Shown in pieces: positions 14,654 through 32,365 of a stretch of 43,465 bases of DNA. Both the position numbers and the translations under genes were made by a program. Within the stretch, counting starts at the first letter, position 1. Each line of letters opens with the position of its first letter. The notes beneath the pieces were generated by a model. That model saw only the letters and a list, made by a program, of their open reading frames with translations, was not told the DNA's origin and searched no databases. Source of the DNA: a bacterium (lineage in GTDB: Bacteria > Sysuimicrobiota > Sysuimicrobiia > Sysuimicrobiales > Humicultoraceae); NCBI GenBank assembly GCA_041487495.1, contig JBGPNN010000001.1, positions 1 through 43,465 on the forward strand, written 5' to 3'.

Positions 14654-14698
14654 CACCGTACCTGACGGCATCTACCATATAGCCATAAATAAGGCTAT
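14650..14698 (+). promoter_or_regulatory. Sigma-70-type promoter plus palindromic candidate operator in front of the Phd::Ogt gene
   Basis: TTGACA at 14650-14655, a 17-nt spacer, then TACCAT at 14673-14678. The inverted repeat ATAGCC (14679-14684)-N8-GGCTAT (14693-14698) follows directly, in an AT-rich patch. AGGAGGA at 14700-14706 and ATG at 14715 come next. Confidence 0.5.
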
Positions 14699-14714
14699 TA
14701 GGAGGACCTCCGAC

Positions 14715-15452
14715 ATGCGCCTCGTCTCGACCGCCGAATTGAAGAACCAAACCAATGCAGTTTTGCGAACCGTCCTGACCGGTGAGCCCGTCGTCATCAC
14801 GCGATATGGCCGCGCCGTCGCGTCCCTGCTGCGGCTCGACGAAGCCGATCTGGGCCGGCTGGCCGCCGGCGGGGATCGCACCGACGCCGCGCCCGCGGCG
14901 AGAAGTCGCGGGCGCCGGTCCCGGGTTCACGCCGCCATCGGGCCGTTCGAGTATGCGGCGTTCCCGCAACCGTTTGGGACCTTCTACGTTGGCTTCGGTC
15001 CCGAGGGCCCGGTGTTTGCGCGCATCGCGCTCTCGCCGGCCGCGTTCGAGCGCGATGCCGCCCGCTATCTCGGCGCCCGCGTGCACCCGGTCCCCGCGCC
15101 AGGCTGGCTCACCGGGGCGGTGGAGTCGGCCATCCGGAAACACGAGGTGTTTCGCGGCCCCGTCGATCTGACGCGGGTTGGACCGTTCGAGCGTGAAGTC
15201 CTCGGGCTGCTCCGTCGCATTCCGGCCGGTGTCGTCAAGACCTATGGCGAAATCGCGAAAGCGGTGGGGCAGCCGGGGGCGGCCCGGGCGGTGGGGGCGG
15301 CGTGCGCCCGCAATCCGCTGCCGCTGCTGATTCCCTGTCATCGCGTCGTGCGCAGCGATGGGGGTCTCGGTGGATACTCGCTGCGCGGGGGCGTCTCACT
15401 CAAGCGCCGCCTGCTCGAAGCCGAAGGCGCCCTGCCCTCACTGCTCGACTGA
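14715..15452 (+). CDS. ogt: Methylated-DNA-protein-cysteine methyltransferase (Ogt/MGMT) with an N-terminal Phd/YefM antitoxin-like domain
   Basis: The N-terminal 45 aa (MRLVSTAELKNQTNAVLRTVLTGEPVVITRYGRAVASLLRLDEADL) look like a Phd/YefM antitoxin. The C-terminal part is a complete MGMT, with FEREVLGLLRRIPAGVVKTYGEIA and the active-site motif IPCHRVV. The tracked ORF opens at 14634. ATG 14715 has a strong SD. Confidence 0.8.
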   Translation: MRLVSTAELKNQTNAVLRTVLTGEPVVITRYGRAVASLLRLDEADLGRLAAGGDRTDAAPAARSRGRRSRVHAAIGPFEYAAFPQPFGTFYVGFGPEGPVFARIALSPAAFERDAARYLGARVHPVPAPGWLTGAVESAIRKHEVFRGPVDLTRVGPFEREVLGLLRRIPAGVVKTYGEIAKAVGQPGAARAVGAACARNPLPLLIPCHRVVRSDGGLGGYSLRGGVSLKRRLLEAEGALPSLLD

Positions 15453-16365: not shown

Positions 16366-16440
16366 GCGGGAGTAGCTCAGCGGTAGAGCGTCTCCTTGCC
16401 AAGGAGAAGGCCGTGGGTTCAAGTCCCATCTCCCGCTCCA
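16366..16440 (+). tRNA. tRNA-Gly (GCC), CCA encoded
   Basis: Acceptor stem GCGGGAG/CTCCCGC. Anticodon stem TCTCC/GGAGA with loop TTGCCAA. T-arm GTGGG-TTCAAGT-CCCAT. Confidence 0.95.
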
Positions 16441-16447
16441 TGCACGG

Positions 16448-16522
16448 GGCGGCGTAGCCAAGAGGCAAGGCAGGGGTCTGCAAAACCCCCATACGCCGGT
16501 TCGAATCCGGCCGCCGCCTCCA
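16448..16522 (+). tRNA. tRNA-Cys (GCA), CCA encoded
   Basis: Acceptor stem GGCGGCG/CGCCGCC. Anticodon stem GGGGT/ACCCC with loop CTGCAAA. T-arm GCCGG-TTCGAAT-CCGGC. Confidence 0.95.
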
Positions 16523-16543
16523 CCGTTTGTCTTCGCGATTCCT

Positions 16544-16632
16544 GCCCAGGTGGCGAAACCGGCAAACGCGCGACACTTAAAATGTCGTCCTGCGAACGCA
16601 GGTTGTGGGTTCGACTCCCACCCTGGGCACCA
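16544..16632 (+). tRNA. tRNA-Leu (TAA), long variable arm, CCA encoded
   Basis: Acceptor stem GCCCAGG/CCTGGGC. Anticodon stem CGACA/TGTCG with loop CTTAAAA. Variable-arm hairpin CCTGCG-AA-CGCAGG. T-arm GTGGG-TTCGACT-CCCAC. Confidence 0.95.
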
Positions 16633-20278: not shown

Positions 20279-20354
20279 GCCCACGTAGCTCAGGCGGTAG
20301 AGCGTGTCCTTGGTAAGGACAAGGTCACCGGTTCGAATCCGGTCGTGGGCTCCA
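20279..20354 (+). tRNA. tRNA-Thr (GGT), CCA encoded
   Basis: Acceptor stem GCCCACG/CGTGGGC. Anticodon stem TGTCC/GGACA with loop TTGGTAA. T-arm ACCGG-TTCGAAT-CCGGT. Confidence 0.95.
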
Positions 20355-20364
20355 GTTCTTTAAC

Positions 20365-21207
20365 ATGCCTGTGAGGGATGTGGAAAACGGCATGCATCGC
20401 CACGAGTTACTCGTCTCCACCGACTGGCTGGCCGCGAATCTATTCAACAGCGATGTGCGGATCGTTGACCTGCGCTGGTCACTGGATGATCAGGACCTGG
20501 GCGAGCGTGAGTACCTCCGCGCGCATATTCCCGGCGCGGTTTACCTCCATTACCTGCGGGACCTTTCTCACCCGGACGATCGTGTCCCTGGCAAGATCGC
20601 CTCGCCCGATCGCTTCCGCGCAGTGATGGAAGCGGCGGGTATCGGCGACAATACTCAGGTGGTCGCCTACGATGATAACGGCATTTTCATGGCCGCTCGT
20701 CTAGTGTGGAGCCTTCACTACTATGGGTACAGCAACGCCCGAATCCTGGACGGCGGAATTCCGAAGTGGCTGGCGGAAGGCCGGCCCGCGGAATCCGGTA
20801 GAATAGGGTATGCTCCACAGCAATTTACTCCGCGACTCAATCCTGCGATCCGCGCAACCAAAGAAGACGTACTTGCGATTTCCACTGGGGACTGCCGGCT
20901 GCTTGACTGTCGCATGGACCGCACGTGGTTTGCGACAGGGATGCACATCCCTGGGGCCAGTCGACTTCCGGCACCCGCCGTGCTCAGGGAAGACGGCACA
21001 TGGAAGCCGCTTGAAGAACTGAGACAATTGGCGGCCTCGACGGGTGGACTGCCGGGTAAACCTGTCGTGCTGTATTGTGGCGGGGGTGTTTCGGCCTCGT
21101 GCTGCTACGTGATGTTCAAGATGCTGGGCTTGGAGAACATTGCGGTCTATGATGGTTCCTGGCAGGAGTGGGGAAGCGACCCTAACACACCCAAGGAGCC
21201 TCACTAG
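20365..21207 (+). CDS. Two-domain rhodanese sulfurtransferase (SseA / 3-mercaptopyruvate-thiosulfate type)
   Basis: Tandem rhodanese domains. The N-terminus reads LVSTDWLAANL. The active-site loop is YCGGGVSAS. The C-terminal YDGSWQEWG motif is present. ATG 20389 (MHRHELLVS), behind GAGGGA, is an alternative start. Confidence 0.85.
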   Translation: MPVRDVENGMHRHELLVSTDWLAANLFNSDVRIVDLRWSLDDQDLGEREYLRAHIPGAVYLHYLRDLSHPDDRVPGKIASPDRFRAVMEAAGIGDNTQVVAYDDNGIFMAARLVWSLHYYGYSNARILDGGIPKWLAEGRPAESGRIGYAPQQFTPRLNPAIRATKEDVLAISTGDCRLLDCRMDRTWFATGMHIPGASRLPAPAVLREDGTWKPLEELRQLAASTGGLPGKPVVLYCGGGVSASCCYVMFKMLGLENIAVYDGSWQEWGSDPNTPKEPH

Positions 21208-21222
21208 GCGTCACCCCGGCAG

Positions 21223-21250
21223 GCTGTGGTCCGCCGCAGCGCGGGATTTT
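21223..21250 (+). terminator. Possible intrinsic terminator after the rhodanese gene
   Basis: GCTGTGG at 21223-21229, loop TCCG, CCGCAGC at 21234-21240 (one G-U pair). A TTTT run follows at 21247-21250. Confidence 0.3.
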
Positions 21251-21278
21251 GGCCTCGGTCCAAAAAAGGGGACTCTTC

Positions 21279-22064
21279 ATGTACACGATCACTCCGCAGG
21301 TTGTAGCTGTTGGGCCGAAGCGCGAAAAAAGCCGCTTTACGTACATGCACAACTTTGGCCAGAAGATAGACATCCCATATGTCTCTTGGCTCATCCAGGG
21401 CAACGGTATAACGGTCTTGGTAGACGCTGGGTGCAGCGCTGAGGACTACCGTACGCACATCCGGCCGGCCGACCGCCCTCTGATGCTTGCGGGAGAGCAG
21501 TTCGCAGACGTCGTTGACGTGAAGCCTCTGGAGGAGCACCTTCGTGACCGGGGCCTTCGTTTTGACGACATCGACATTCTGATTCAGACCCACCTCGACT
21601 GGGATCACACGATGGGAACTCGCCGCTTCAAGAAGAGCAGAATCCTGCTGCAACGCGCGGAGTGGGCCAAAATCCCATTTCACCCACTCTTCGAGGGCAC
21701 GTACGCCCCAAAGTACATCTACGAAGAAATATCCAAACTCAACCTCCATCTGCTCGAAGGTGACCACACGGTTGCGCCCGGGCTGGAAATACTCTATACG
21801 CCTGGGCACAGCCCCGGCGGGCAATCCGTTGTGGTGGAGACCGGTCAGGGGCCTTATGTGATTGCAGGCATGTGCACGATTCGCGAGAATTTTTACCCGC
21901 CCGCGGACGTACTTGCTCATTCAGAGTACCGTGTGATTCCCGCTGGGATGCACATTGATCCGCTCGTCTGTTACGATAGCATGCTGCGGATCCTGGAGAG
22001 GGGTGGTGAACGGGTTCTTCCGTTCCACGATAGCTCTATCATGTCTATGGGAACGATCCGCTAG
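21279..22064 (+). CDS. Metallo-beta-lactamase-fold hydrolase (lactonase-like) with a variant metal motif
   Basis: Start set at ATG 21279 (MYTITPQ). The motif THLDWDH sits where the HxHxDH motif is expected. Later His residues occur in YTPGHSPG and LPFHD. Confidence 0.75.
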   Translation: MYTITPQVVAVGPKREKSRFTYMHNFGQKIDIPYVSWLIQGNGITVLVDAGCSAEDYRTHIRPADRPLMLAGEQFADVVDVKPLEEHLRDRGLRFDDIDILIQTHLDWDHTMGTRRFKKSRILLQRAEWAKIPFHPLFEGTYAPKYIYEEISKLNLHLLEGDHTVAPGLEILYTPGHSPGGQSVVVETGQGPYVIAGMCTIRENFYPPADVLAHSEYRVIPAGMHIDPLVCYDSMLRILERGGERVLPFHDSSIMSMGTIR

Positions 22065-22173: not shown

Positions 22174-22950
22174 GTGCAGACGCGTCGTTCTTGGGGACTG
22201 GAGGAGAAAGTCGTCGTCGTCACCGGGGCCAGTCGCGGTCTAGGGCGATGGATAAGCCTCGCATTCGCGCGTGCCGGGTCGCGGCTTGCCGTTGCGGCCC
22301 GGAACCGGGTGCTCCTTGACGACGTTGCCTCGGAACTGCGCCAGGCACGGGTCGAGGTGATCACGATTCCCACGGACGTTCGCGATCCCGACGATTGTGC
22401 CCGGCTGCTCGAGACCGCGCATGCACACTTTGGCCGCATAGACATTTTGGTGAACAACGCCGGCACGGCGGTGCGGAAACCAGCCGTAGAGATCACCGTC
22501 GACGACTTTGATGCGATTGTGCAGACCAACTTTCGAGGGACCTACTTTTGCACTGTCGCTGCCGGGAGGATCATGGTGGGTCAGAGGAGCGGGGCCGTGG
22601 TGAATATTGCTTCAACCTCCGCCGTGTTAGTCCGACGCGGTGTTCCGAACTCAGTGTATGGGCCTTCGAAAGCCGCGATTGTTATGCTCACCAAGGCTTT
22701 GGCGGAGGAGTGGGCTCCGTTCGGGGTTCGAGTCAATTGCGTGGCTCCCGGTCGCCTGCCGACGGATCTGTCCAGGAGTCTCGCGCCGCAAGGTACCCGC
22801 GAGTGGGAGAGCCTAACGCAAACGATTCCTATGGGACGGCTGGGGGAACCGGAGGATATTGCGGAGCCGGTTCTCTTCCTCGCTTCGCCCTTGAGTGGCT
22901 ATATCACCGGACAGACCCTCTTCGTGGACGGCGGTAGAACCATCCTGTAA
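22174..22950 (+). CDS. Short-chain dehydrogenase/reductase (classical SDR, FabG-like)
   Basis: TGASRGLG cofactor motif, NNAG, and the catalytic S...YGPSKAA (YxxxK) are present. Confidence 0.9.
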   Translation: MQTRRSWGLEEKVVVVTGASRGLGRWISLAFARAGSRLAVAARNRVLLDDVASELRQARVEVITIPTDVRDPDDCARLLETAHAHFGRIDILVNNAGTAVRKPAVEITVDDFDAIVQTNFRGTYFCTVAAGRIMVGQRSGAVVNIASTSAVLVRRGVPNSVYGPSKAAIVMLTKALAEEWAPFGVRVNCVAPGRLPTDLSRSLAPQGTREWESLTQTIPMGRLGEPEDIAEPVLFLASPLSGYITGQTLFVDGGRTIL

Positions 22951-23010
22951 CGTCGCCATGGCCGCAAGTCCATGAAGAAGTCCGCTTTGATCTAGAGGGG
23001 AGGCAACACG

Positions 23011-23466
23011 GTGGAGCGCACGCCGTCGGACAAACAGGTCGTCGGGGACATCCTGGAACCTCTCGAGTTCACTGTGACGCCAGAGATGAACGAGCAGTAT
23101 TTGTATGGTCAAGAAGACTACCATCCACGATACGTAGAGAGAACCCCCGCCAGTCTGCCGCTGGTGCACCCGGCGCTGCTGCTCAACATGAGCAACATGC
23201 CCCGCAGTCCGTCTTTTTCAGTTTCCTCTGGTCTCGCGGCCATTCATGTCGGAGAGCAATGTGAATTTCTGCGGCCCGTCAGAGTGGGGCAGCCGATCAA
23301 GGTTACCTGGGTGGTCAGGGACGCGTACGAGAAACGAGGACGCCCCTATCGAGTTTATGATGCGCTCATCACCCATGCGGCGGGCGAACCCATCATGCGG
23401 AGGCGGATAGAGAATACCTATGTGTCCGCGGCGATGAGCATTGCGGAAAAAGGGAGCGATAGGTAA
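23011..23466 (+). CDS. Hot-dog fold protein, MaoC-dehydratase N-terminal-half-like subunit
   Basis: 151 aa, of hot-dog size. It lacks the hydratase motif. It sits 6 nt upstream of a MaoC-type partner. GGGGAGG lies upstream of GTG 23011. Confidence 0.65.
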   Translation: MERTPSDKQVVGDILEPLEFTVTPEMNEQYLYGQEDYHPRYVERTPASLPLVHPALLLNMSNMPRSPSFSVSSGLAAIHVGEQCEFLRPVRVGQPIKVTWVVRDAYEKRGRPYRVYDALITHAAGEPIMRRRIENTYVSAAMSIAEKGSDR

Positions 23467-23472
23467 CCTCGG

Positions 23473-23907
23473 ATGACGATCTTGACCAGACAAACAACAG
23501 TCGGCTCGGAGTTTAGCGGCAAGAAGAGCACGTTGACATGGGAGCGACTCTGGGCTTTTTCAGGGGGTCTGTTTGCCGCGGACGGTTGGCCTAAGAAGAA
23601 CATCCATACAGACATGGGCGCCGCGAAGGCGACGGGGCTCTACACAGTAGCGGCCTCCGGCACACAGTATCAGGGCTACGCAGTATCCCTTCTCATTGAT
23701 CTGTTCGGCGAACAGTGGTTGGGCAACGGCTCTATGACCGCGAAATTCATCGCTGTCGTCACCGTCAACGACACGATCCAGCCAAAAGCGAAAGTGGTCG
23801 CTGTGCGTACCGAGCAAGGACGAAGCCTGTTCGAACTCGAACTCTGGTGTGAGAATCAGAACGGCACTAAGGTTATGGTAGGAACCGCGGTCGGGTCAAT
23901 TGCCTAG
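23473..23907 (+). CDS. MaoC-like (R)-specific enoyl-CoA hydratase/dehydratase subunit
   Basis: 144 aa. KKNIHTD resembles the hydratase-2 N-P-I-H-x-D motif. The C-terminal hot-dog sheet is recognisable (VVAVRTEQGRSLFELELWCENQNG). Confidence 0.75.
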   Translation: MTILTRQTTVGSEFSGKKSTLTWERLWAFSGGLFAADGWPKKNIHTDMGAAKATGLYTVAASGTQYQGYAVSLLIDLFGEQWLGNGSMTAKFIAVVTVNDTIQPKAKVVAVRTEQGRSLFELELWCENQNGTKVMVGTAVGSIA

Positions 23908-23958: not shown

Positions 23959-25158
23959 GTGGCGATGGCTCGACTGAGCGAAGATGTCACTAAGGACCTG
24001 CTACGCAAACACGGCATTCGGGTTCCGCCTGGAGTTGTGGTAACTTCTTCTTCGGGCGTGGAGGAAATTGTTCAATCCATGGGTCCGCAGGTGGTGGTCA
24101 AGGCCCTCGTGCCTGCCGGCCGGCGAGGGAAAGCCGGGGCTGTTCAAAAGGCGGCGGGTGTCTCGGACGCACGGCGGATCATCGATAGCATCCTAGGGTC
24201 CAAGGTCCATGGGTACATGGTCCGGCAAGTGCTCATTGAACACGCGATCCCCATCGCACACGAACTCTATACGGCATTCACGTTTGGTCCCGATGGCGCC
24301 AGGGTGTTGGCTTCTACACGAGGTGGGGTCGATATCGAGGAAACGCACCTTCAGCATCCCGAGGCGATTGTTGTGCATTCTGTCGACCACGTGACAGGAT
24401 TTAGGCGGCATCAGTGTGTCGACCTCTGGCGGCGAACCGGGGTTCGCGGGTCCCAGTTGGTCGATCTGTCATACTTTACCCTTCGTCTATGGGAAACGTT
24501 TCGAGAGGTGGATGGCTTCATGCTCGAGATAAATCCTCTCGCCGTTGATGAAAGCGGACACCTTTGGGCAGTGGGTGCGATGCTCGACGTTGACGACGCT
24601 GCAATGTTTCGGCATCCGGATTTCGCGAGGGTCCCCGTGGACGCCGGACCGGGATGGCGCGAGCCTACCATTCGTGAGAGGGCGGTCGGGGAGGCCGACC
24701 GCGCCCTGGTCGGAGGCAGGGTGCGCTACATTGAACTGGAGGGAGAGATAGGTCTCTTTGTGGCTGGAGGCGGGGCCGGGCTGATGATTCACGATCTTCT
24801 GATTGCGTTCGGGGGCAGACCGGCGAACCACACCGACATCACCCCAGGTCGGTCTCCCGACAAACTCTCCGCCGTTTTCGATGCAATTTTCACACAGCCA
24901 CACGTGAAGAGTCTGCTGGTGTGCGTCAACTATCTTCAAATGGTAAGGGCGGATGTGGTCGTGGAGGCTCTTGTGCGTTCCATCGCAGATCATCACGTTA
25001 CCACAGAACGGTTCCCCATTGTTGTTCGCGTTTTTGGCCCTGGCGAAGGCAATGCACGAATACTTGCCTCGCAAGTGCCCGGTATTCGATACCTCCCTCA
25101 CGGAACCGATATCGAAGAGGCAGTCAGGCTCATTGTCGATCTAACCTCGCGCGTTTGA
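23959..25158 (+). CDS. Succinyl-CoA synthetase beta-subunit-like ATP-grasp protein (ADP-forming acyl-CoA synthetase, substrate unknown)
   Basis: The N-terminus (ARLSEDVTKDLLRKHGIRVPPG...VVVKALVPAGRRGKAG) parallels SucC. The C-terminal CoA-ligase domain is present. ATG 23965 is a likely alternative start. Confidence 0.8.
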   Translation: MAMARLSEDVTKDLLRKHGIRVPPGVVVTSSSGVEEIVQSMGPQVVVKALVPAGRRGKAGAVQKAAGVSDARRIIDSILGSKVHGYMVRQVLIEHAIPIAHELYTAFTFGPDGARVLASTRGGVDIEETHLQHPEAIVVHSVDHVTGFRRHQCVDLWRRTGVRGSQLVDLSYFTLRLWETFREVDGFMLEINPLAVDESGHLWAVGAMLDVDDAAMFRHPDFARVPVDAGPGWREPTIRERAVGEADRALVGGRVRYIELEGEIGLFVAGGGAGLMIHDLLIAFGGRPANHTDITPGRSPDKLSAVFDAIFTQPHVKSLLVCVNYLQMVRADVVVEALVRSIADHHVTTERFPIVVRVFGPGEGNARILASQVPGIRYLPHGTDIEEAVRLIVDLTSRV

Positions 25159-25173
25159 GGACACCACACGGCA

Positions 25174-26085
25174 TTGAGTATTTTGATTGATCGGGATACG
25201 AGTGTTGTTGTGCAGGGAATCACAGGCGGACAAGCCGCCATGGATGTCCCCTGCATGCGGGCGTATGGCACCCGTGTTGTGGCTGGAGTGACTCCCGGCA
25301 AGGGAGGACAACAGGTCTTTGGCGTGCCGGTCTACGATACGGTGCGCGAGGCTCTGGCGCAGCACCACGTGACAGCGAGTGTGGTGTACGTACCTGCGTC
25401 GGCGGTACGGGAGGCGGTTTTTGAGGCTGTGGAGGCACGTATCCCCCTTATTCTGGTGCCCACAGAGGGAGTTCCACACCACGATGCTGCGGATTTCGTG
25501 GCTGCGGCACGCGCCGCGGGGGTACGGATCATTGGCCCCAACTGCAATGGGTTGATCAGCCCGGGCGAGTGCAAATTGGGAGGGATTGGTGGTGACGCTC
25601 CCGAGGAGATTTACGCGCCCGGTTCGATCGGTATCATTTCGCGAAGCGGAGGAATGTCTGCGGAGATTGCCGTGACCCTCAAGAACGCGGGATACGGCGT
25701 CAGCACATGCGTGTCGATTGGCGGAGATCTGATTATTGGGACCAGCCCTGTCGAATGCCTTAGGCTGTTCGCGGCGGACTCCCAGACACAAGCCGTTGTG
25801 TATTTTGGCGAACCTGGAACCCGGGCAGAGCAGGCGCTTGCAGACTACCTGGAGCGCGCTCGATATCCTAAGCCCGTTGCTGCACTCATCAGCGGTGATT
25901 TCCAGGAAGCGTACCCGCAGGGTACGAGTTTCGGGCACGCATCGGCGATGATCCAGGAAAACAACGACACGGCAAGAGCCAAGAGGCGTGTGCTGCAGCA
26001 AGCAGGTGCCCTGATAGTCGATCGAATGAGTGGGATTCCAAAGTTGCTTTCGGGCAGTCTTGACCCTTCGTGTGGTCGTGCTTGA
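25174..26085 (+). CDS. Succinyl-CoA synthetase alpha-subunit-like protein
   Basis: MSILIDRDTSVVVQGITGGQ parallels the SucD N-terminus. GIISRSGGMS is present. The phosphohistidine loop is retained as FGHASAM. TTG start. Confidence 0.8.
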   Translation: MSILIDRDTSVVVQGITGGQAAMDVPCMRAYGTRVVAGVTPGKGGQQVFGVPVYDTVREALAQHHVTASVVYVPASAVREAVFEAVEARIPLILVPTEGVPHHDAADFVAAARAAGVRIIGPNCNGLISPGECKLGGIGGDAPEEIYAPGSIGIISRSGGMSAEIAVTLKNAGYGVSTCVSIGGDLIIGTSPVECLRLFAADSQTQAVVYFGEPGTRAEQALADYLERARYPKPVAALISGDFQEAYPQGTSFGHASAMIQENNDTARAKRRVLQQAGALIVDRMSGIPKLLSGSLDPSCGRA

Positions 26086-26122: not shown

Positions 26123-27448
26123 GTGGAGAAGAGTCGGTTCTGGGACTCTGACATCGAGACACTACCCCGTTCCCGCCTCGCAACGCTGCAACTCCAACGC
26201 CTGCGCTGGCAGATCGAACGATGCTACCGTGAGTCTGCCTTCTATCGTGAGCGTTTGGATCGGGTGGGGGTCAAAGCCTCGCATCTTCAAACCCTGGAGG
26301 ACATCCGACTCTTTCCCGTGGTTACCAAGCAGGAGCTCCGCGACGAACAAGCGGCACACCCACCATTCGGACGCTACATCGTGGCGGCGATATCCGAGTG
26401 GCGCGAACTGCATCCGTCCACCGGCACAACGGGGGTGCCGGTGAACACGATTTGGTCGGCGGAGGATGCCGGGGTGATCGCCGACCATACCGCCCGGACG
26501 ATGTGGAGCTTCGGCGTGCGGCCCGACGATATTGTGCAGAACGCCTTCGCCTACGGCCTGTGGGTGGCTGGGATCGCCGTCCACTATGCCTGCGCCCGCA
26601 TCGGGTGCTTCGTCATTCCGATTGGCGCCGGCACGACCTCCCGCCAAGTGGACTACTTTCTCAACCCTGGATCGACAGTGCTGATTGCCACGCCATCGTT
26701 TGCCATTCATATCGCTGAGCATATGCGGGAACGTGATGTGAACCCAGCGGACATTCCGCTGCGGGCGGGCTGTTTCGGTGGCGAACCCGGCGCGGAGGTT
26801 CCTGCCACGCGTGCCCGCATCGAACGAGCGCTGGGGATCGACTGCTACGACTACTACGGCCTCGGCGAGATTGCCCCGACGTTTGCGTCCGAATGTATCG
26901 AGAAGAGCGGTCTGCACATCGCGGAAGACCACTACCTCGCCGAGGTTCTTGATCCCGAGACCCAGGAGCCCCTTCCCCCCGGCCATTCCGGCGTGCTGGT
27001 CCTTACCAACCTGACGCGCAAGGCCATGCCGATGATCAGGTACTGGACGAGCGACTTTGCCCGCCTGGATTCTGAGGCATGCCGGTGTGGCCGCACTCAC
27101 GCGCGGTTGGCCGGAGGCATCTTGGGCCGGGCCGACGACCTGATCATTTACAAAGGAGCGAAGTTTTACCCCGTGCAAGTTGAAGGCGTCGTGCGCGCGT
27201 TTCCCGAGTTGACCGAGGAATTCCGCATCGAACTAAGCAGAGACGAGGAACGAGGCGTAGATCAGGTTGCCGTAATTGCCGAGGTGGCCTCGGGGAGGGA
27301 CGAAACCGTAGGCGACCGCCTTCGCCGCGCCCTCGGCGAGGCCCTGGGCGTGACACCACTCGTCCACCTGGTTCAGGCTGGCAGTCTGGAACGCACAGTA
27401 TTCAAGGCCCGTAGAGTGGTCGACCTGCGCCCCCGGCCATCCGCCTGA
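26123..27448 (+). CDS. Phenylacetate-CoA ligase family (PaaK-type AMP-forming aryl/heteroaryl-acetate-CoA ligase)
   Basis: 441 aa. FWDSDIETLPRSRLATLQLQRLRWQIERCY, TKQELRDEQAAHPPFG, HPSTGTTGVP and YDYYGLGEI are typical of PaaK/F390-synthetase-like enzymes. Confidence 0.88.
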   Translation: MEKSRFWDSDIETLPRSRLATLQLQRLRWQIERCYRESAFYRERLDRVGVKASHLQTLEDIRLFPVVTKQELRDEQAAHPPFGRYIVAAISEWRELHPSTGTTGVPVNTIWSAEDAGVIADHTARTMWSFGVRPDDIVQNAFAYGLWVAGIAVHYACARIGCFVIPIGAGTTSRQVDYFLNPGSTVLIATPSFAIHIAEHMRERDVNPADIPLRAGCFGGEPGAEVPATRARIERALGIDCYDYYGLGEIAPTFASECIEKSGLHIAEDHYLAEVLDPETQEPLPPGHSGVLVLTNLTRKAMPMIRYWTSDFARLDSEACRCGRTHARLAGGILGRADDLIIYKGAKFYPVQVEGVVRAFPELTEEFRIELSRDEERGVDQVAVIAEVASGRDETVGDRLRRALGEALGVTPLVHLVQAGSLERTVFKARRVVDLRPRPSA

Positions 27449-27473
27449 CCGGGTTGTGCGTATGGAGGGTGGC

Positions 27474-28262
27474 ATGGACGCTTCTCGGAAACCAGTGGAG
27501 CTCGAAGAGTCGGACAAGCTACGGCGGACTCTCCGCAGCGATCCCCCTGATCGCCTGGGCAAGTCCACGTGGGAGATATTGGAGGAGGCCATCAGGGATG
27601 GGAAGCAGGCTGAGACTTTGGCGATTCTCGATTACCTGCAGGAAGGCGAGGTTGCTCCGCGCCATTTCTTCTTTGCTGATTGGGTGTACGGCAATTTCTC
27701 CTACGTCGTCGAGGCCTTCGGCGAGGACGCATACGAGGACATGTTTAGGGCGACGTGGGGTGCCAAATCGGATGGTGTACCTGGCAGCGTAGAGGGTTTC
27801 GAGCCCGGGCTTCTCACGGATGTGCGGGCCTTGGTGAATAGACATGCTGAGATAATGCGTGGTCATTGTCCTCCACCGGGCGCGATCCAGATCTCGGAAG
27901 AAGCGGATCGTTTTGTGATGAAGCTTCTTCCATGCAACTCGGGCGGGCGAATGCTCCGGAGCGGGATGACGCAGGGAGACTGGAACCTTCCCGTGACTGA
28001 AAAGGCCCACCGGTGGTCCTGGGGCAAGGGTGGGAAGCCTCTCTACTGCTGCCACTGTGCCTTGAGTCGGGGCATCATGGCGACGGAGACGAGGGGGTTT
28101 CCGATCCGAGTTCATGAAATACCCGGACGCGGGCTCAATCCCGATTCCGACCATCCTTCCGACCCTTGTTGTATGATTTTCTATAAGGAACCAGAGTTGA
28201 TTCCCGAGGAATACTTCACCGCCCTTGGACTCAAGAAGGAACCATCCAAATTTCAGCGCTAG
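27474..28262 (+). CDS. Uncharacterised Cys/His-motif protein, paralogue A
   Basis: The ORF opens at GTG 27456. ATG 27474 follows GGAGGG (27464-27469). Conserved blocks are shared with the next gene (LPCNSGGRMLR, HRWSWGKGGKPLYCCHCA, DPCCMIFYKEPELIPEEYF). I recognise no family. Confidence 0.7.
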   Translation: MDASRKPVELEESDKLRRTLRSDPPDRLGKSTWEILEEAIRDGKQAETLAILDYLQEGEVAPRHFFFADWVYGNFSYVVEAFGEDAYEDMFRATWGAKSDGVPGSVEGFEPGLLTDVRALVNRHAEIMRGHCPPPGAIQISEEADRFVMKLLPCNSGGRMLRSGMTQGDWNLPVTEKAHRWSWGKGGKPLYCCHCALSRGIMATETRGFPIRVHEIPGRGLNPDSDHPSDPCCMIFYKEPELIPEEYFTALGLKKEPSKFQR

Positions 28263-28323
28263 CCTGGAGATCTTGGCTTCTGGCATTTCTGTGTTCCGCA
28301 TTCTCGTCTCGGAGGGAACGGAC

Positions 28324-29055
28324 ATGGCACCGAAGCTAGAATGGTCCGGGGCGTTAGGCAGAGTGACCCGCACTGAGTCCGCCCCGGAGCAGGGCATTCT
28401 GACTTGGGACTTAGTGCGCGACGCCATCGCGGGGGGGCGACCCGAGGAGGCCATTCGATGGCTGAGGTACATCAAGGATGGGGAGAACCATGTGAAGCCA
28501 GGACGGGTGAGCCAGTCAATGTTGTACATTCAATCACTCCTTACCTATATTGCCGAGCGTTATGGAGAGGACCATGTGGAAGCGGCGCTACGTTGGTGGC
28601 GCCGAAAGTTGCTCGTTGCAGGACACGAGCCCACTTATGAAATGAGGCCCCTTGAGCGGGTTCGGTATCACGCGGAGATGGCTCGGGCGGATTACAGTGG
28701 TCTCCGGTCTGAAGCTGTCGACGTCTTTGAAGAGGAAGACCGATACGTGATGGTGCTGGACTGCTGCGGTGGCTGTGGCAAAATGCGCAGAGCTGAGCGG
28801 GAGGGGGGTGGGCCCAGACTGGGTATGACCTCGCGCTCGCATCCGTGGTCCTGGGGCAGAACGAACGTACCATACTATTGCGTGCACAACTGTGTGTGGT
28901 GGGAGGTCATGAGTACGGAAGATCTCGGTTATCCACTCCGAATTCATGAGTGGTCTGATGACCCTCGCAAGCCTTGTCGAGTCTACTTCTACAAGGACCC
29001 AGGACAAATTCCCGAACACTACTTCGCGCGCATTGGGAAGACACGAAAATTCTAG
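28324..29055 (+). CDS. Uncharacterised Cys/His-motif protein, paralogue B
   Basis: The ORF opens at 28225, overlapping paralogue A. ATG 28324 follows GGAGGG. Blocks DCCGGCGKMRR, HPWSWGRTNVPYYCVHNCV and KPCRVYFYKDPGQIPEHYF align with paralogue A. Confidence 0.7.
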   Translation: MAPKLEWSGALGRVTRTESAPEQGILTWDLVRDAIAGGRPEEAIRWLRYIKDGENHVKPGRVSQSMLYIQSLLTYIAERYGEDHVEAALRWWRRKLLVAGHEPTYEMRPLERVRYHAEMARADYSGLRSEAVDVFEEEDRYVMVLDCCGGCGKMRRAEREGGGPRLGMTSRSHPWSWGRTNVPYYCVHNCVWWEVMSTEDLGYPLRIHEWSDDPRKPCRVYFYKDPGQIPEHYFARIGKTRKF

Positions 29056-29075: not shown

Positions 29076-29130
29076 TTGACAAGCACGGCACGTGGGTGCC
29101 AAAATATGACATATCGCATATGATATACGC
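29076..29130 (+). promoter_or_regulatory. Candidate promoter/operator region upstream of the solute-binding protein gene
   Basis: TTGACA at 29076-29081. Inverted repeat GGCAC-N4-GTGCC at 29087-29100. An unusually AT-rich stretch follows, containing the palindrome ATATGACATAT (29104-29114) and CATATG (29117-29122). Possible -10 hexamers are CAAAAT (29100-29105) and TATGAT (29119-29124). Confidence 0.3.
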
Positions 29131-31036: not shown

Positions 31037-31681
31037 GTGGGAGTCCGCTGGACAGAGCAGGCGCTGAAAATTGCGGCACCGCTTTGGGAAGCCGTTCTCA
31101 AGCATGATTTCATCCGTGAGCTTGGTAACGGGACTCTTCCCGACAAAAAGCTCATCTTCTATTTCGAGCAGAATATCCACTACATCGACATGGTCGTGCG
31201 GTGTCGTACCATTGCGGCGTCCAAGGCAACCTCAGACGCGGAAAGAGACTTCTTCCTGGATCGGACACCGGTCGTGGTGGAGGAGCTGCAGCACCAACGG
31301 AAGATGCTTGCAGCACTTGGCGGCAACCCAAATGCTCCGATCGCGCCTGCCTGTCACGGTTACACTCGCCACATCCTTAGCCTCGCTTGGGCTCGCAGGC
31401 CAGTGGAGTATTTTGGCGCATTCCTGCCGTGCCCGCTAAGCTACGACGAGATCGGTCACCACCTAAGAGATCGGCTCAAGAAGTCTTCCCATCGGGATTG
31501 GTGGGAGTTCTATATGAGCCGCGAGCATAACGAAATGTGCGACAGGTATCGGAGTTTCGTTGATGAGCGCGTTGACGACGTTTCACCCGCTGCGCGGAAC
31601 GAGATGCTCAAGAACTTTATTGTGAGCTGTAAGTACGAATACTGGTTTTGGGATATGGCGTACAATCTCGAGACTTGGTAG
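31037..31681 (+). CDS. TenA/thiaminase-II family protein, copy 1
   Basis: It aligns by eye to TenA: HDFIRELGNGTLP, FYFEQNIHYI, the FLPCPLSYDEIG Cys motif, and NFIVSCKYEYWFWDMAY. Confidence 0.85.
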   Translation: MGVRWTEQALKIAAPLWEAVLKHDFIRELGNGTLPDKKLIFYFEQNIHYIDMVVRCRTIAASKATSDAERDFFLDRTPVVVEELQHQRKMLAALGGNPNAPIAPACHGYTRHILSLAWARRPVEYFGAFLPCPLSYDEIGHHLRDRLKKSSHRDWWEFYMSREHNEMCDRYRSFVDERVDDVSPAARNEMLKNFIVSCKYEYWFWDMAYNLETW

Positions 31682-31693
31682 GAGATCAAAGCG

Positions 31694-32365
31694 ATGAAGG
31701 CGTGGTCACGGGAAGCGTACGATGCCGGACGTGAATTGTGGCAGCGTATTCTGGAGCATCCCTTTGTCCGGGGACTACGCGACGGAACTCTGCCCGACCG
31801 AAGTCTCAAGTTCTACTTCGAACAGAACACCCACTATATCGACGCGGCTGTAAAGGCGCGTGCGCTTGCTGCGGGTAAGGCGCCCGATATTGAGGCGCGC
31901 GACTTTTGCCTTGAACGCGGCCCGTCCGGCAAGAACGAGCTTCAGCACCAACTCAACCTCCTCGCGGCGTGCGACGGCGACCCAAACGCGGAGTTGGCGC
32001 CGGCTTGTCTTGGATACACACGCCATCTCCTGGCGATCGCGCACAGCCGCGACACGGTAGACTTGTTGGCAGCCTTCCTCCCGTGCCCCTGGACGTATGA
32101 TGAGATCGGGTCCTCACTCGAGAAACATTTGAAGAACCCACTCCACATTGACTGGATGCAATTCTACTGGAGCGCGGACCATCACGCTCTGTGCGATCGC
32201 CACCGCACGATTGTTGATCGACTAGCCGGTGACTTGTCGGCGCGTCGGCGAACCCAACTCCTGGATGATTATCTGATCAGTCTGCACTATGAGCACCGGT
32301 TCTGGGACATGGCGTATCGGTGCGAGCGCTGGCCCAGCGACCGGCTGGTGGAGTTGCGTGCATAG
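31694..32365 (+). CDS. TenA/thiaminase-II family protein, copy 2
   Basis: Paralogue of copy 1: HPFVRGLRDGTLP, FYFEQNTHYI, FLPCPWTYDEIG, YLISLHYEHRFWDMAY. Confidence 0.85.
   Translation: MKAWSREAYDAGRELWQRILEHPFVRGLRDGTLPDRSLKFYFEQNTHYIDAAVKARALAAGKAPDIEARDFCLERGPSGKNELQHQLNLLAACDGDPNAELAPACLGYTRHLLAIAHSRDTVDLLAAFLPCPWTYDEIGSSLEKHLKNPLHIDWMQFYWSADHHALCDRHRTIVDRLAGDLSARRRTQLLDDYLISLHYEHRFWDMAYRCERWPSDRLVELRA

Follow-up and report, generated by a model that had tools for sequence, protein, structure and literature searches.

Cys4 metal sites are usually structural or redox-active and seldom catalytic, and in treble-clef and zinc-knuckle proteins the ligands are contributed by a knuckle at the end of a β-hairpin and by the first turn of a helix. 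In DUF35 proteins Zn sits in a Cys4 ribbon, and these proteins organise complexes of thiolase or HMG-CoA synthase. HgdAB and BcrBC (PF06050) are heterodimers of paralogous, Cys-ligated metallo-subunits that act on CoA thioesters, and their genes are located by that of a CoA-activating enzyme. For DUF35, the structure of a Zn-ribbon protein for which a role in acyl-CoA binding was proposed has been described (PMC2954200).

In a bacterial DNA stretch of 43,465 nt (the window), an earlier note had proposed that two adjacent genes, here called A and B, encode a heteromeric, metal-dependent enzyme acting on the acyl-CoA produced by the ligase encoded upstream. In the present analysis, heteromery, the metal site and a link to acyl-CoA metabolism found support, whereas a fixed linkage to a PaaK-type ligase was not upheld in the clade that carries the pair.

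Like the DUF35/SSO2064-type proteins (PF01796, PF12172), which are partners of SCPx-type thiolases, HMG-CoA synthase and steroid aldolases, A and B appear to be small cytoplasmic Cys4 proteins, and their family shows no recognised catalytic motif and has its genes in acyl-CoA catabolic operons by thiolases and CoA ligases. However, Pfam gave no match for A, for B, for 10 long or fused relatives or, at E ≤ 5, for 31 isolated C-terminal domains. Also, the model of A consists of a helical N-domain and a three-stranded α/β domain instead of a ribbon and an OB barrel, the proteins are about twice as large as DUF35 proteins, and they have near-invariant His, Glu and Lys residues and occur in paralogous pairs and tandem fusions. 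Membership in DUF35 was rejected because neither PF01796 nor PF12172 matched and no OB barrel was seen in the AlphaFold2 (AF2) secondary structure of A. Similarly, the likeness to 2-hydroxyacyl-CoA dehydratase and benzoyl-CoA reductase is conceptual, namely a putative paralogous Cys-metal heterodimer beside a CoA-activating enzyme. In contrast to HgdAB and BcrBC, with subunits of roughly 380-430 aa, A and B have 240-260 aa and show no sequence or fold match, no gene for an ATP-dependent activator lies nearby (none of the BcrAD/HgdC or BadFG type among the window genes), and the family is also found in MAGs of mostly aerobic lineages. Membership in PF06050 was rejected, as there was neither an HGD-D match nor an adjacent activator ATPase.

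Genes A and B and their surroundings

The two ORFs were found on the + strand at the positions given by the earlier note (Table 1), each with the GGAGGG ribosome-binding site (RBS) of its own that had been noticed there, and the 25-nt gap was confirmed between the stop codon of the ligase gene (TGA, 27446-27448) and the ATG of A (27474). Alternative starts of A exist at GTG 27456 and at the in-frame ATG 27462; the starts of homologues correspond to 27474. The genes end with TAG codons at 28260-28262 (A) and 29053-29055 (B). In a BLASTP comparison A and B shared 34% identity over 253 columns (E = 4e-39) and all of the shared blocks quoted in the note were recovered, so that by sequence the two are clear paralogues, as had been claimed. 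Calculated pI values are 5.5 for A and 8.2 for B. Neither protein has a predicted transmembrane helix or signal peptide, in line with the note, and the maximal Kyte-Doolittle hydropathy over 19 residues is as low as 0.77 for A and 0.48 for B. When compared to a syntenic relative (L090; genomic loci of the family are numbered L001 onwards), dN/dS was 0.155 for A and 0.091 for B, and the flanking genes gave 0.154 (ligase) and 0.092 (SBP gene) in the same comparison. A and B are real genes under purifying selection.

An antisense ORF longer than the pair genes overlies the A/B pair of the window.

Table 1. Positions of genes, ribosome-binding sites and motifs in the window
Feature	Position	Strand	Remarks
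SDR and two small hot-dog/MaoC genes	22174..23907	+	Head of tightly spaced string
SucC-like and SucD-like genes (ADP-forming acid-CoA ligase pair)	23959..26085	+	In A/B gene string; below succinyl-CoA synthetase cut-offs
PaaK-class acyl-CoA ligase	26123..27448	+	AMP-binding and AMP-binding_C_2 (Pfam); 25 nt upstream of A
RBS of A, GGAGGG	27464..27469	+	4 nt upstream of ATG; direct sequence reading
ORF A (paralogue A)	27474..28262	+	262 aa; canonical family member
Motif P-C154-N-S-G-G-R-M-L-R-S of A	27930..27962	+	First predicted Cys ligand; G157 92%, G158 94%, R159 79%, R162 83%
Motif Y191-C192-C-H194-C195 of A	28044..28058	+	Two predicted Cys ligands and near-invariant His; Y191 94%
Motif P-C232-x4-Y237-K238-x-P-E-L-I-P244-E-E-Y-F of A	28164..28217	+	Fourth predicted Cys ligand and C-terminal signature
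RBS of B, GGAGGG	28311..28316	+	7 nt upstream of ATG; direct sequence reading
ORF B (paralogue B)	28324..29055	+	243 aa; divergent partner, remodelled metal site

Genes A and B stand at the end of a string in the order SDR, split MaoC hydratase, SucCD-like ligase, PaaK-like ligase, A and B. The two MaoC genes are of the split R-specific enoyl-CoA hydratase type, and the SDR/MaoC gene order is maintained in L090. A few kb downstream in the window there are genes for a methylmalonyl-CoA epimerase, a CoA-transferase and a mutase, with the mutase and B12-binding genes at a distance of about 6 kb. The upstream ligase resembles the PaaK phenylacetate-CoA ligase (TIGR02155) in its AMP-binding and AMP-binding_C_2 domains and in a full-length alignment. 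However, it reached 337.5 bits with TIGR02155 (cut-off 646.3) and 349.8 bits with NF041878 (cut-off 700), and no paaABCDE genes occur within the window. By domain content it is a PaaK-class enzyme and not a PaaK equivalog; since its scores are far under the equivalog cut-offs, phenylacetate should not be assumed as its substrate. An Rfam scan of the window detected four tRNAs only and no riboswitch near the operon, and a scan for promoters and terminators gave nothing above the expectation from shuffled sequence.

The homologues of A amounted to 82 close and about 1,100 remote clusters (50% identity), with E values down to 2.5e-158. In total, the family comprises 1,128 representative clusters, 766 of them with E ≤ 1e-10, from at least eight phyla, and A and B can be aligned end to end with more than 300 domains (CCHCC family profile A1/A3). 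Among GTDB species representatives 195 loci were confirmed, with hosts belonging to Chloroflexota, Desulfobacterota, Alpha-, Gamma- and Betaproteobacteria, Acidobacteriota, Rokubacteria, Spirochaetota, Planctomycetota and Binatia. Neither a cultured host nor an informative name was encountered among the homologues listed (82, 24 and 120) or the 80 genome loci; all homologues listed were unnamed or "hypothetical" and came from uncultured organisms. Pfam and NCBIfam gave no match for A or B apart from a sub-threshold TPR_4 in B, and phmmer searches of the PDB with A and B returned noise from designer PPR/TPR repeats over the N-terminal helices only. When PDB was searched with a full-length profile and a profile of the C-terminal domain, the former gave the same repeat noise over the N-terminal helices, and the C-terminal domain had no match (HMM E ≤ 0.001). 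Foldseek searches of the PDB with the models of A and of a natural fusion also led to zero matches at E ≤ 0.001, the top non-significant ones being BcsD and H-NOX. No description of the family was found in the literature. The author of the earlier note could not place A and B in any family, and profile and structure searches of the kind proposed there likewise brought no confident match to a characterised one in Pfam, NCBIfam or PDB. Judged by these searches, the A/B family is large, widespread and previously unannotated.

The PDB sequence searches also returned chance matches (E ~ 1) to IscB and pantetheinase.

A predicted four-cysteine metal site

The AF2 model of A is confident (pLDDT 90.7, pTM 0.86) and predicts an N-terminal helical domain (about residues 30-130) followed by a small C-terminal α/β metal domain. 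Candidate metal-site residues of A are C154, C192, H194, C195 and C232, and A carries this set completely, together with K238 and P244. In the model, C154 lies at the end of a β-hairpin, ahead of a Gly-rich loop and a short Arg-rich helix, the motif Y191-C195 sits at the N-terminus of helix 190-207, and C232 is placed at the start of a strand. Such a ligand layout would be typical of Cys4 knuckle sites. Over 306 family domains, conservation was 98% for C154, 96% for C192, 94% for H194, 93% for C195 and 98% for C232, with the CCHCC pattern complete in 267 of them. Outside the ligands, Y237 (95%), K238 (98%), P244 (98%), E142 (93%) and R129 (91%) are also strongly conserved.

In B, the corresponding residues are C148, C151, C186, H188, N189, C190 and C218. 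An Asn occupies the position of C195 of A, a Cys follows one residue on (C190) and the knuckle has an extra Cys (C151), so that the ligand set reads C, C, H, N and C, the Asn being compensated by Cys at positions 157 and 196, and the B-type pattern is C-x-H-[NS]-C. Position 196 is a Cys in all four distinct B-type orthologues shown, and the knuckle Cys at position 157 is present in three of them (absent from L004/L005). Across the family, a Cys at knuckle position 157 occurs in 13/20 domains without C195 but in 5/286 domains with C195 (Fisher p = 2e-14). This compensating swap argues for a real tetra-Cys metal site that has been remodelled in B. Both the conservation of Cys and His in homologues and the swap are sequence evidence in favour of the metal dependence put forward in the earlier note, whose motif YC-x-H-(x)-C correctly covers the shifted Cys of B (N189, C190).

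The predicted secondary-structure positions of the ligands, as well as the knuckle swap, would be compatible with a mononuclear Cys4 zinc site. As in treble-clef and zinc-knuckle proteins, ligands would come from a hairpin-end knuckle and a helix start, and the C-x-x-C knuckle of B-type proteins (P-C-G-S-C-G) is classical. In contrast to these, the fourth ligand of A, C232, stems from a distant strand, and the motif forms part of a larger domain with no detectable relative. The two-lobed build of a helical and an α/β part recalls H-NOX haem domains, which ranked at the top for the fusion model. However, H-NOX domains have no Cys4 site and the A/B alignment lacks the haem-binding Y-x-S-x-R motif; with Foldseek values of E = 1.2-1.6 and TM 0.14-0.39, a classification as H-NOX was rejected and is kept as a weak lead only.

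Pairing and gene neighbourhoods across the family

Tandem A/B genes are confined to one clade of Chloroflexota, in which they are adjacent at every locus (for example, locus tags HYU29_05015 and HYU29_05020). About 20 B-type clusters were found, all from Chloroflexota, and the trees of A and B mirror each other. Of 83 loci analysed, four distinct ones have the tandem (the window, L004/L005, L006/L007 and L010) and a search with B yielded further ones (L090-L093). The tandem was thus rejected as a family-wide trait. Thirteen proteins of 465-564 aa are natural tandem fusions of full length, most of which have lost His194 or the whole site from one half. For one natural A-B-like fusion a single compact fold was predicted (pTM 0.89), in support of an A-B heterodimer. 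Gene arrangement, fusions and models agree in suggesting this assembly, so the heteromeric pair of the earlier note gains indirect support from constant adjacency in the clade, mirrored trees and the compact fusion.

Genes at the loci of relatives were predicted by conservation-weighted calling. Adenylate-forming CoA ligases were the most enriched and most tightly coupled neighbours family-wide; AMP-binding ligases made up 34/553 genes within four positions of the family gene versus 2/555 genes farther off at the same loci (p = 6e-9), an enrichment of about 17-fold that extends across phyla and is based on locus counts that are not phylogenetically independent events. At 17 loci and in the window, a ligase gene directly adjoins on the same strand; the gaps span 1-105 nt, and 15 of them are ≤55 nt. 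PaaK-class enzymes reappear in two unrelated lineages (L085; L096/L097). The ligase enrichment and this recurrence indicate that the link to acyl-CoA metabolism is real. Further recurrent neighbours are acyl-CoA dehydrogenases (ACADs), enoyl-CoA hydratases, thiolases, E1 alpha/beta subunits, family III CoA-transferases, acyl-CoA mutases and OYE/FadH-type reductases. Within the pair clade, a PaaK-type ligase upstream of the pair was encountered only in the window and in L090, which is 88% identical; at the other loci of this clade an SBP5 ABC transporter, family III CoA-transferases, Amidohydro_2 or an enoyl-CoA hydratase adjoins the pair. PaaK linkage was therefore rejected as the defining context. 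An action of the pair on the acyl-CoA made by the ligase, as the note had it, agrees with the family-wide enrichment and with the recurring PaaK-class enzymes, but the ligase is not a conserved neighbour in the pair clade. Similarly, the expected co-occurrence holds for A with B within their clade, whereas neither the tandem nor the PaaK neighbour is a family-wide feature.

In one block of species from the Alphaproteobacteria, the family gene lies between asparaginase-II-like and MmcB-like genes with no CoA enzyme adjacent, and in L030 and L060 it is flanked by a methyltransferase gene and a hydrolase-like gene. LipA or LipB adjoins the family gene at several loci, with E1 alpha/beta and a fused E2-E3 gene nearby. 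K238 as a lipoylation site was set aside, because the annotated locus has a canonical E2 with a lipoyl domain and nothing lipoyl-like was found in the family.

Possible functions of the pair

Probably, the A/B pair is a two-subunit metal-binding protein. From the data above we infer a model in which heterodimer formation, the identity of the metal, CoA binding and catalysis are combined: A would be the canonical subunit and B a faster-evolving partner whose metal site was rebuilt by shifting one ligand. Four Cys would form one metal centre, with C154 from the knuckle after a β-hairpin, C192 and C195 from the N-terminus of a helix and C232 from a strand, and structural Zn(II) is the preferred reading of this centre. 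Beside it would lie the near-invariant His194, Glu142 and Lys238 as well as the Gly/Arg loop G-S-G-G-R-x-R-R, a Gly-rich and Arg-rich loop of the kind that binds phosphates. The loop might grip the nucleotide-diphosphate part of acyl-CoA (or acyl-AMP), and His194 and Glu142 might perform acid/base chemistry on the thioester produced by the neighbouring CoA ligase. A and B would then close an operon-like string, running from the SDR, split MaoC and SucCD-like genes via the PaaK-like ligase, that could route an organic acid via CoA esters to the products of the methylmalonyl-CoA epimerase, CoA-transferase and mutase genes downstream. To the reading of A and B as heterodimer subunits of a previously unannotated metalloprotein family, the zinc and acyl-CoA assignments included, we give an even chance. 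Since Cys4 sites are usually non-catalytic, it is only the additional conserved polar residues that speak for the label of an enzyme, and no homology to an enzyme of known mechanism was found in the searches.

The same four cysteines, conserved to 93-98%, might instead bind a [4Fe-4S] or [2Fe-2S] cluster or a rubredoxin-type Fe, in which case A/B could be a redox protein serving neighbouring redox enzymes such as ACADs, a tungsten aldehyde oxidoreductase or OYE/FadH-type enoyl-CoA reductases, or could itself be a redox or radical enzyme on acyl-CoA by analogy to 2-hydroxyacyl-CoA dehydratase heterodimers. Relocated ligands are common in Fe-S proteins too, and the genomic context offers frequent tandem ACADs, an AFOR gene directly upstream in L001, adjacent OYE-like reductases in L017 and L031, a Fer4-nitroreductase after the fusion in L096 and many strictly anaerobic hosts, for example Desulfobacterota, Dehalococcoidales and Syntrophus. 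However, the family is equally present in MAGs of mostly aerobic lineages (marine Alphaproteobacteria, the marine contig L001, Burkholderiales), ferredoxin-like CxxCxxC spacing and Pfam signals of Fer4, HGD-D and radical-SAM are all absent, the window contains no activator ATPase of the BcrAD/HgdC type, and one knuckle plus a helix N-terminus is more typical of mononuclear Zn sites. An iron-sulfur protein in any of these roles, whether as partner of the named enzymes or as the enzyme itself, appears unlikely. The Zn-ribbon precedent of DUF35 with its proposed acyl-CoA-binding role (PMC2954200) suggests a non-catalytic zinc scaffold by analogy, an adaptor that would stabilise or channel between CoA ligase and thiolase, ACAD or mutase. 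This would suit a Cys4 site of the normal, structural kind and the translationally coupled positions of family genes, which lie 12 nt after SCPx-type thiolase genes in L046 and L065, overlap by 4-8 nt with the gene of a B12-binding mutase subunit in L021 and L088 and by 4 nt with an ACAD gene in L096, and follow ligase genes by 1-18 nt; also, fully annotated loci with SCPx-type thiolases have no DUF35 gene among their annotations. Nevertheless, we consider a scaffold quite improbable, given that non-ligand residues are very highly conserved (H194 94%, E142 93%, K238 98%, Y237 95%, R129 91%), that no sequence relationship to DUF35 was detected, that His194 is missing from one fusion half only, which looks like a pair of active and inactive subunits, and that partners differ widely between loci, which is hard to square with a single specific protein-protein interface.

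A ligand sensor or cofactor carrier, in which the two lobes, one helical and one α/β with a conserved His on a helix, would hold a tetrapyrrole or another cofactor as H-NOX holds haem and would serve B12-dependent mutases or regulate the pathway, is very improbable in both the binding and the service it implies. H-NOX was the best Foldseek match of the fusion model (E = 1.2, TM 0.39) and also appeared once for the single A model, but these structural matches are below any significance threshold and H-NOX has nothing equivalent to the four conserved Cys. Corrinoid genes do recur: L021 and L088 have mutase and B12-binding genes immediately upstream, the window has them about 6 kb further downstream, and the operon of the fusion encodes a RACo activator. 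However, most loci are without a corrinoid gene, and no fused output or DNA-binding domain was seen in 150 architectures.

A bolder form of the preferred zinc/acyl-CoA reading is possible, if doubtful: A and B would be founders, open to experiment, of a structurally new metalloenzyme superfamily that acts as a dedicated partner of adenylate-forming CoA ligases and transforms acyl-CoA or acyl-AMP, in a reaction not yet assigned, by means of the Cys4 centre and an adjacent catalytic His. With similar reserve, such an enzyme might fill a gap in the pathways by which abundant uncultured bacteria (Chloroflexota, Desulfobacterota, marine Alphaproteobacteria) degrade organic acids that are recalcitrant or branched/alicyclic. 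Without a match in Pfam, NCBIfam or the PDB and located beside CoA-activating enzymes, A and B probably represent an unrecognised step or partner in organic acid breakdown by uncultured bacteria. Although it counts about 1,100 clusters, the family is represented neither in the PDB nor in the copies of Pfam and NCBIfam that were searched, and it sits in catabolic clusters that are used to predict organic-acid oxidation by uncultured Chloroflexota, Desulfobacterota and marine Alphaproteobacteria; an unassigned and strongly conserved metalloprotein in these clusters means a blind spot in current pathway reconstructions. If the fold is truly new, it would add a new metal-binding architecture, and if the protein is a ligase partner, the ANL/PaaK superfamily would gain an accessory subunit of a new type. 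The predicted natural heterodimer of A and B, in which one metal site is canonical and the other remodelled, and the natural fusions at hand are convenient entry points to structure and substrate.

Some MAGs carry several copies of the family gene, with two loci each in JACPPQ01 and JAFDIX01, which is consistent with a substrate-diversified catabolic family.

Genes A and B and their surroundings

The earlier note had described two paralogous reading frames, each with its own ribosome-binding site, directly behind a PaaK-type CoA ligase and devoid of membrane segments, and all of these points were borne out. Both frames lie on the + strand, GGAGGG precedes each start, and A (the canonical paralogue) begins 25 nt after the TGA stop codon of the ligase gene. 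BLASTP alignment of A with B, its divergent partner, gave 34% identity over 253 columns (E = 4e-39), and maximal 19-residue hydropathies of 0.77 for A and 0.48 for B leave no hydrophobic stretch compatible with a transmembrane helix or signal peptide in either protein. Compared with the syntenic locus L090 (88%-identical), dN/dS values amounted to 0.155 for A and 0.091 for B, within the range of the flanking genes for the ligase (0.154) and a solute-binding protein (0.092). A and B are real, selected, paralogous genes.

Features of the window around genes A and B
Feature	Position	Strand	Remark
O6-methylguanine-DNA methyltransferase DNA-binding domain	14634-15452		N-terminal segment ahead matches Phd/YefM antitoxin family
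Four tRNA genes	16366-16629, 20279-20351		three clustered, one just upstream of rhodanese gene
Rhodanese and metallo-beta-lactamase pair	20365-22064		upstream of operon
SDR	22174-22950	+	head of gene string
Two small hot-dog/MaoC genes	23011-23466, 23473-23907	+	weak FAS1_DH_region match; MaoC_dehydratase match
SucC-like and SucD-like genes	23959-26085	+	
PaaK-class ligase	26123-27448	+	full-length alignment to PaaK models; stop codon 27446-27448
GGAGGG before A	27464-27469		
A	27474-28262	+	262 aa
GGAGGG before B	28311-28316		
B	28324-29055	+	243 aa
Promoter-like and palindromic elements	29076-29127		between B stop and SBP gene
Tandem TenA/THI-4/PQQC-family paralogues	31037-31681, 31694-32365		106 and 107 vs. 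thiaminase-II equivalog cut-off of 130 bits

A and B form the end of a tightly spaced + strand gene string, and L090 is fully syntenic with the window. The hot-dog pair, which follows the SDR gene in L090 also, resembles an R-specific enoyl-CoA hydratase split over two genes and probably heteromeric. The SucC-like and SucD-like products scored below the cut-offs for succinyl-CoA synthetase (223 vs. 370 bits and 297 vs. 336-353) and probably constitute an ADP-forming CoA ligase that acts on a different acid; the operon would then hold two different CoA-activating systems. The ligase upstream of A, at 337-350 bits vs. PaaK cut-offs of 646-700, is to be read as PaaK-class rather than as a phenylacetate ligase. 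Downstream of B follow genes for SBP_bac_5, the two TenA-family paralogues, which may not be thiaminases, a glyoxalase/methylmalonyl-CoA-epimerase-like protein, a family III CoA-transferase, a GntR regulator, and B12-binding and methylmalonyl-CoA-mutase proteins, and then luciferase-like, M20, M29-like, ADH and ALDH genes. The marine contig L001 likewise has a TENA_THI-4 gene, about 7 kb away from its family member.

Between B and the SBP gene, a promoter-like TTGACA-18-CAAAAT (10/12 matches; the whole scan was not above shuffle expectation) and the AT-rich palindrome TATCGCATATGATATA may serve the transporter gene as a promoter and operator of its own. Rhodanese genes adjoin family members in Desulfobacteraceae loci (L019, L094/L095) as well, and these neighbours hint at a sulfur connection. 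The methyltransferase gene is either an unusual domain combination or has a mis-chosen start codon.

Search for known relatives and spread of the family

Like the author of the earlier note, we were unable to place A and B in a known family. A had no match in Pfam (2025 copy) or NCBIfam (release 20), and B had only a sub-threshold match to TPR_4. PDB sequence searches with A, B and two profiles (full-length family, isolated C-terminal domain) returned only repeat-type noise on the N-terminal helices or chance matches with E ~ 1, and 31 isolated C-terminal domains, scanned singly against Pfam at E <= 5, had no family in common. A confident AlphaFold2 model of A from 46 homologues (pLDDT 90.7, pTM 0.86) had no Foldseek match at E <= 0.001 among 350,542 PDB chains (best E = 0.13, TM 0.28), and the model of a natural 498-aa fusion likewise gave nothing significant in the PDB (best E = 1.2, H-NOX, TM 0.39); a new fold means here one with no solved analogue among the PDB chains searched, short of proof of novelty. 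A literature search did not match the family to any known kind. Because sequence profiles, PDB sequences, PDB folds and the literature all failed to place it, we rate this 'CCHCC' group as new both as a protein family and in its architecture.

A word-indexed search yielded 82 homologue clusters, and an exhaustive profile search of 1.84 billion representatives retained 1,128 (E <= 0.001), 766 of them with E <= 1e-10. When GTDB species were scanned at one genome each, 195 loci were confirmed; the 80 that were retrieved (79 MAGs and one single-cell genome) belong to Chloroflexota, Desulfobacterota, Alpha-, Beta- and Gammaproteobacteria, Acidobacteriota, Rokubacteria, Spirochaetota, Planctomycetota and Binatia. 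All matches listed in three homologue searches were unnamed or 'hypothetical', none with a Pfam domain. Three architectures occur, namely singles of ~240 aa, full tandem fusions (465-564 aa) and ~370-aa forms in which the N-terminal helical half is present in an extra copy; among those examined, Pfam revealed no fusion to a known domain. Conserved uncharacterised families are not rare, and this one is set apart by its size, phyletic breadth, clear metal site with ligand swapping, probable natural heterodimer, fusion series and specific CoA-ligase association in the catabolic gene clusters of uncultured bacteria that are abundant.

Conserved Cys4+His residues, ligand compensation and the co-inherited A/B unit

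The four cysteines and the histidine noticed in A and B proved to be conserved in homologues. In 306 aligned domains, C154 (98%), C192 (96%), H194 (94%), C195 (93%) and C232 (98%; numbering of A) were nearly constant, with the CCHCC pattern in 267. Also near-invariant are K238 (98%), P244 (98%), G208 (97%), Y237 (95%), Y191 (94%), E142 (93%), R129 (91%) and H131 (88%), as well as the loop P153-C-G-S-G157-G158-R159-x-x-R162. In the model of A, C154 sits at a beta-hairpin end, C192 and C195 at the N-terminus of helix 190-207, and C232 at the start of a strand; such a knuckle and helix-N-terminus layout is typical of Cys4 sites. A knuckle cysteine at position 157 occurs in 13 of 20 domains without C195 and in 5 of 286 with it (odds ratio 104, p = 2e-14), and this compensating swap is the strongest argument for metal binding by the cysteines. 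C195 is missing from B and from every distinct orthologue, all of which carry a cysteine one residue later (...Y-C-x-H-[N/S]-C...), and B and three of four distinct orthologues possess the knuckle cysteine (P-C-G-S-C-G). Because the loss of C195 is accompanied by a relocated cysteine, B appears to keep the metal site in rebuilt form.

The A/B tandem is limited to one Chloroflexota clade with ~15 A-type clusters (57-88% identity to A) and ~20 B-type clusters (56-89% identity to B). Both genes adjoin in all contigs examined (the window, L004/L005, L006/L007, L010 and L090-L093), and HYU29_05015 and HYU29_05020, of A- and B-type, are consecutive locus tags. In a distance tree, the A and B clades are each monophyletic with matched internal branching, a long stem lies under B, and the distance from A to B (0.765) is not smaller than that to single-copy members (0.709); these features suggest that the duplication is old, that the copies were inherited together and that B evolved faster. 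Other parts of the family contain independent tandem fusions, which serve as Rosetta-stone evidence for an A/B unit. The model of one of them reached a pTM of 0.89 over 498 residues, so the placement of its halves relative to one another is predicted with confidence. In most of the fusions, one half is CCHCC and the other lacks His194 (R, A, Q, T, G or L instead) or the whole site, as would be expected if one subunit were active and its partner degenerate. With opposite pI values of 5.5 (A) and 8.2 (B), the two proteins would suit a heterodimer, which they probably form.

Neighbouring acyl-CoA genes and candidate functions

Neighbours were surveyed at 83 non-redundant loci, with frames chosen by cross-locus conservation and gene products clustered. 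AMP-binding CoA ligases were commonest: 28 loci had one within four genes of the family gene and 12 had one immediately upstream in the same orientation (gaps of 1-55 nt), with adjacency in at least five phyla. Using farther genes of the same loci as internal control, and bearing in mind that locus counts are not independent evolutionary events, ligases made up 34 of 553 genes within four positions vs. 2 of 555 farther off (odds ratio 18, p = 6e-9), and ACADs were enriched ~2-fold (p = 0.02). The association with CoA-activating and acyl-CoA-processing enzymes is statistically strong. Also found repeatedly near family genes are SDRs, enoyl-CoA hydratases, E1 alpha/beta of 2-oxoacid dehydrogenases, a fused E2-E3 gene, LipA/LipB, family III CoA-transferases, OYE/FadH-type reductases, tungsten AFOR and SCPx-type thiolases (12-nt gap in L046 and L065). 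In L021 and L088, the family gene directly follows genes for the large and B12-binding subunits of an acyl-CoA mutase and overlaps the B12-binding gene by 4-8 nt, which suggests translational coupling. The fusion P0255 is encoded in the order RACo, PaaK-class ligase, ACAD, ACAD, fusion (4-nt overlap), Fer4-nitroreductase, SCPx thiolase, and a Desulfobacteraceae MAG (L085) has a PaaK-class ligase within four genes of a family member.

The specific PaaK linkage is lineage-restricted, because other loci with the A/B pair have no PaaK-class ligase next to it: L091 (DUF3179, A, B, SBP5-permeases ... PrpD, two CoA-transferases), L004 and L092 (permeases, A, B, fused CoA-transferase, Amidohydro_2, SBP), L006 (SBP5, Amidohydro_2, A, B, PGA_cap) and L093 (MFS, A, B, enoyl-CoA hydratase). 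A conserved alphaproteobacterial synteny (SDR, asparaginase-II-like, family gene, MmcB-like; L045, L048, L049, L051, L054, L058, L074 and L098, the MmcB-like gene being one position farther away in L058) lacks a directly adjacent CoA enzyme and does not fit the acyl-CoA theme. L030 and L060, with a methyltransferase and a hydrolase-like gene as neighbours, are a further exception.

The earlier note had proposed that the pair is a heteromeric, metal-dependent enzyme for the acyl-CoA that the ligase produces, and this proposal is partly supported. Its heteromeric nature has good indirect support in constant adjacency, mirrored trees, natural fusions and the fusion model, as has metal dependence in Cys4+His conservation and ligand swapping; the ligase link held as a family-wide one, being neither PaaK-specific nor constant among A/B pairs. 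In such a putative enzyme, the Gly/Arg-rich loop at a helix N-terminus would bind CoA or AMP phosphates, and His194 and Glu142 would act on the thioester. Knuckle/helix geometry, the C-x-x-C knuckle of B and the occurrence of the family in MAGs from lineages classed as mostly aerobic make us lean slightly towards structural Zn over Fe-S for the Cys4 centre. Rival readings are that the family protein is an Fe-S redox protein serving neighbouring dehydrogenases and reductases, a non-catalytic scaffold or a cofactor-binding or sensor protein. The scaffold would have a precedent in DUF35 (PMC2954200), and a cofactor or sensor role would agree with the weak H-NOX resemblance of the fusion model and the corrinoid neighbour genes.

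Among single loci, LipA and/or LipB lie directly downstream on the same strand in L019, L040, L044, L062, L067, L070 and L072, E1 alpha/beta and the fused E2-E3 gene are nearby in the related loci L011-L014, L078 and L094, and L017 has mutase and B12-binding genes nearby on the opposite strand. The family protein P0063 is identical, with identical neighbours (AFOR directly upstream), in L001 and in the MAG locus L041 (labelled Alphaproteobacteria UBA828), reflecting either a very widespread population or a binning/labelling inconsistency. In a Chloroflexi MAG (L008/L009), a single-copy member lies among LarA_N (nickel-pincer racemase N-domain), LUD_dom, several small UGSC-domain and two SBP_bac_5 genes.
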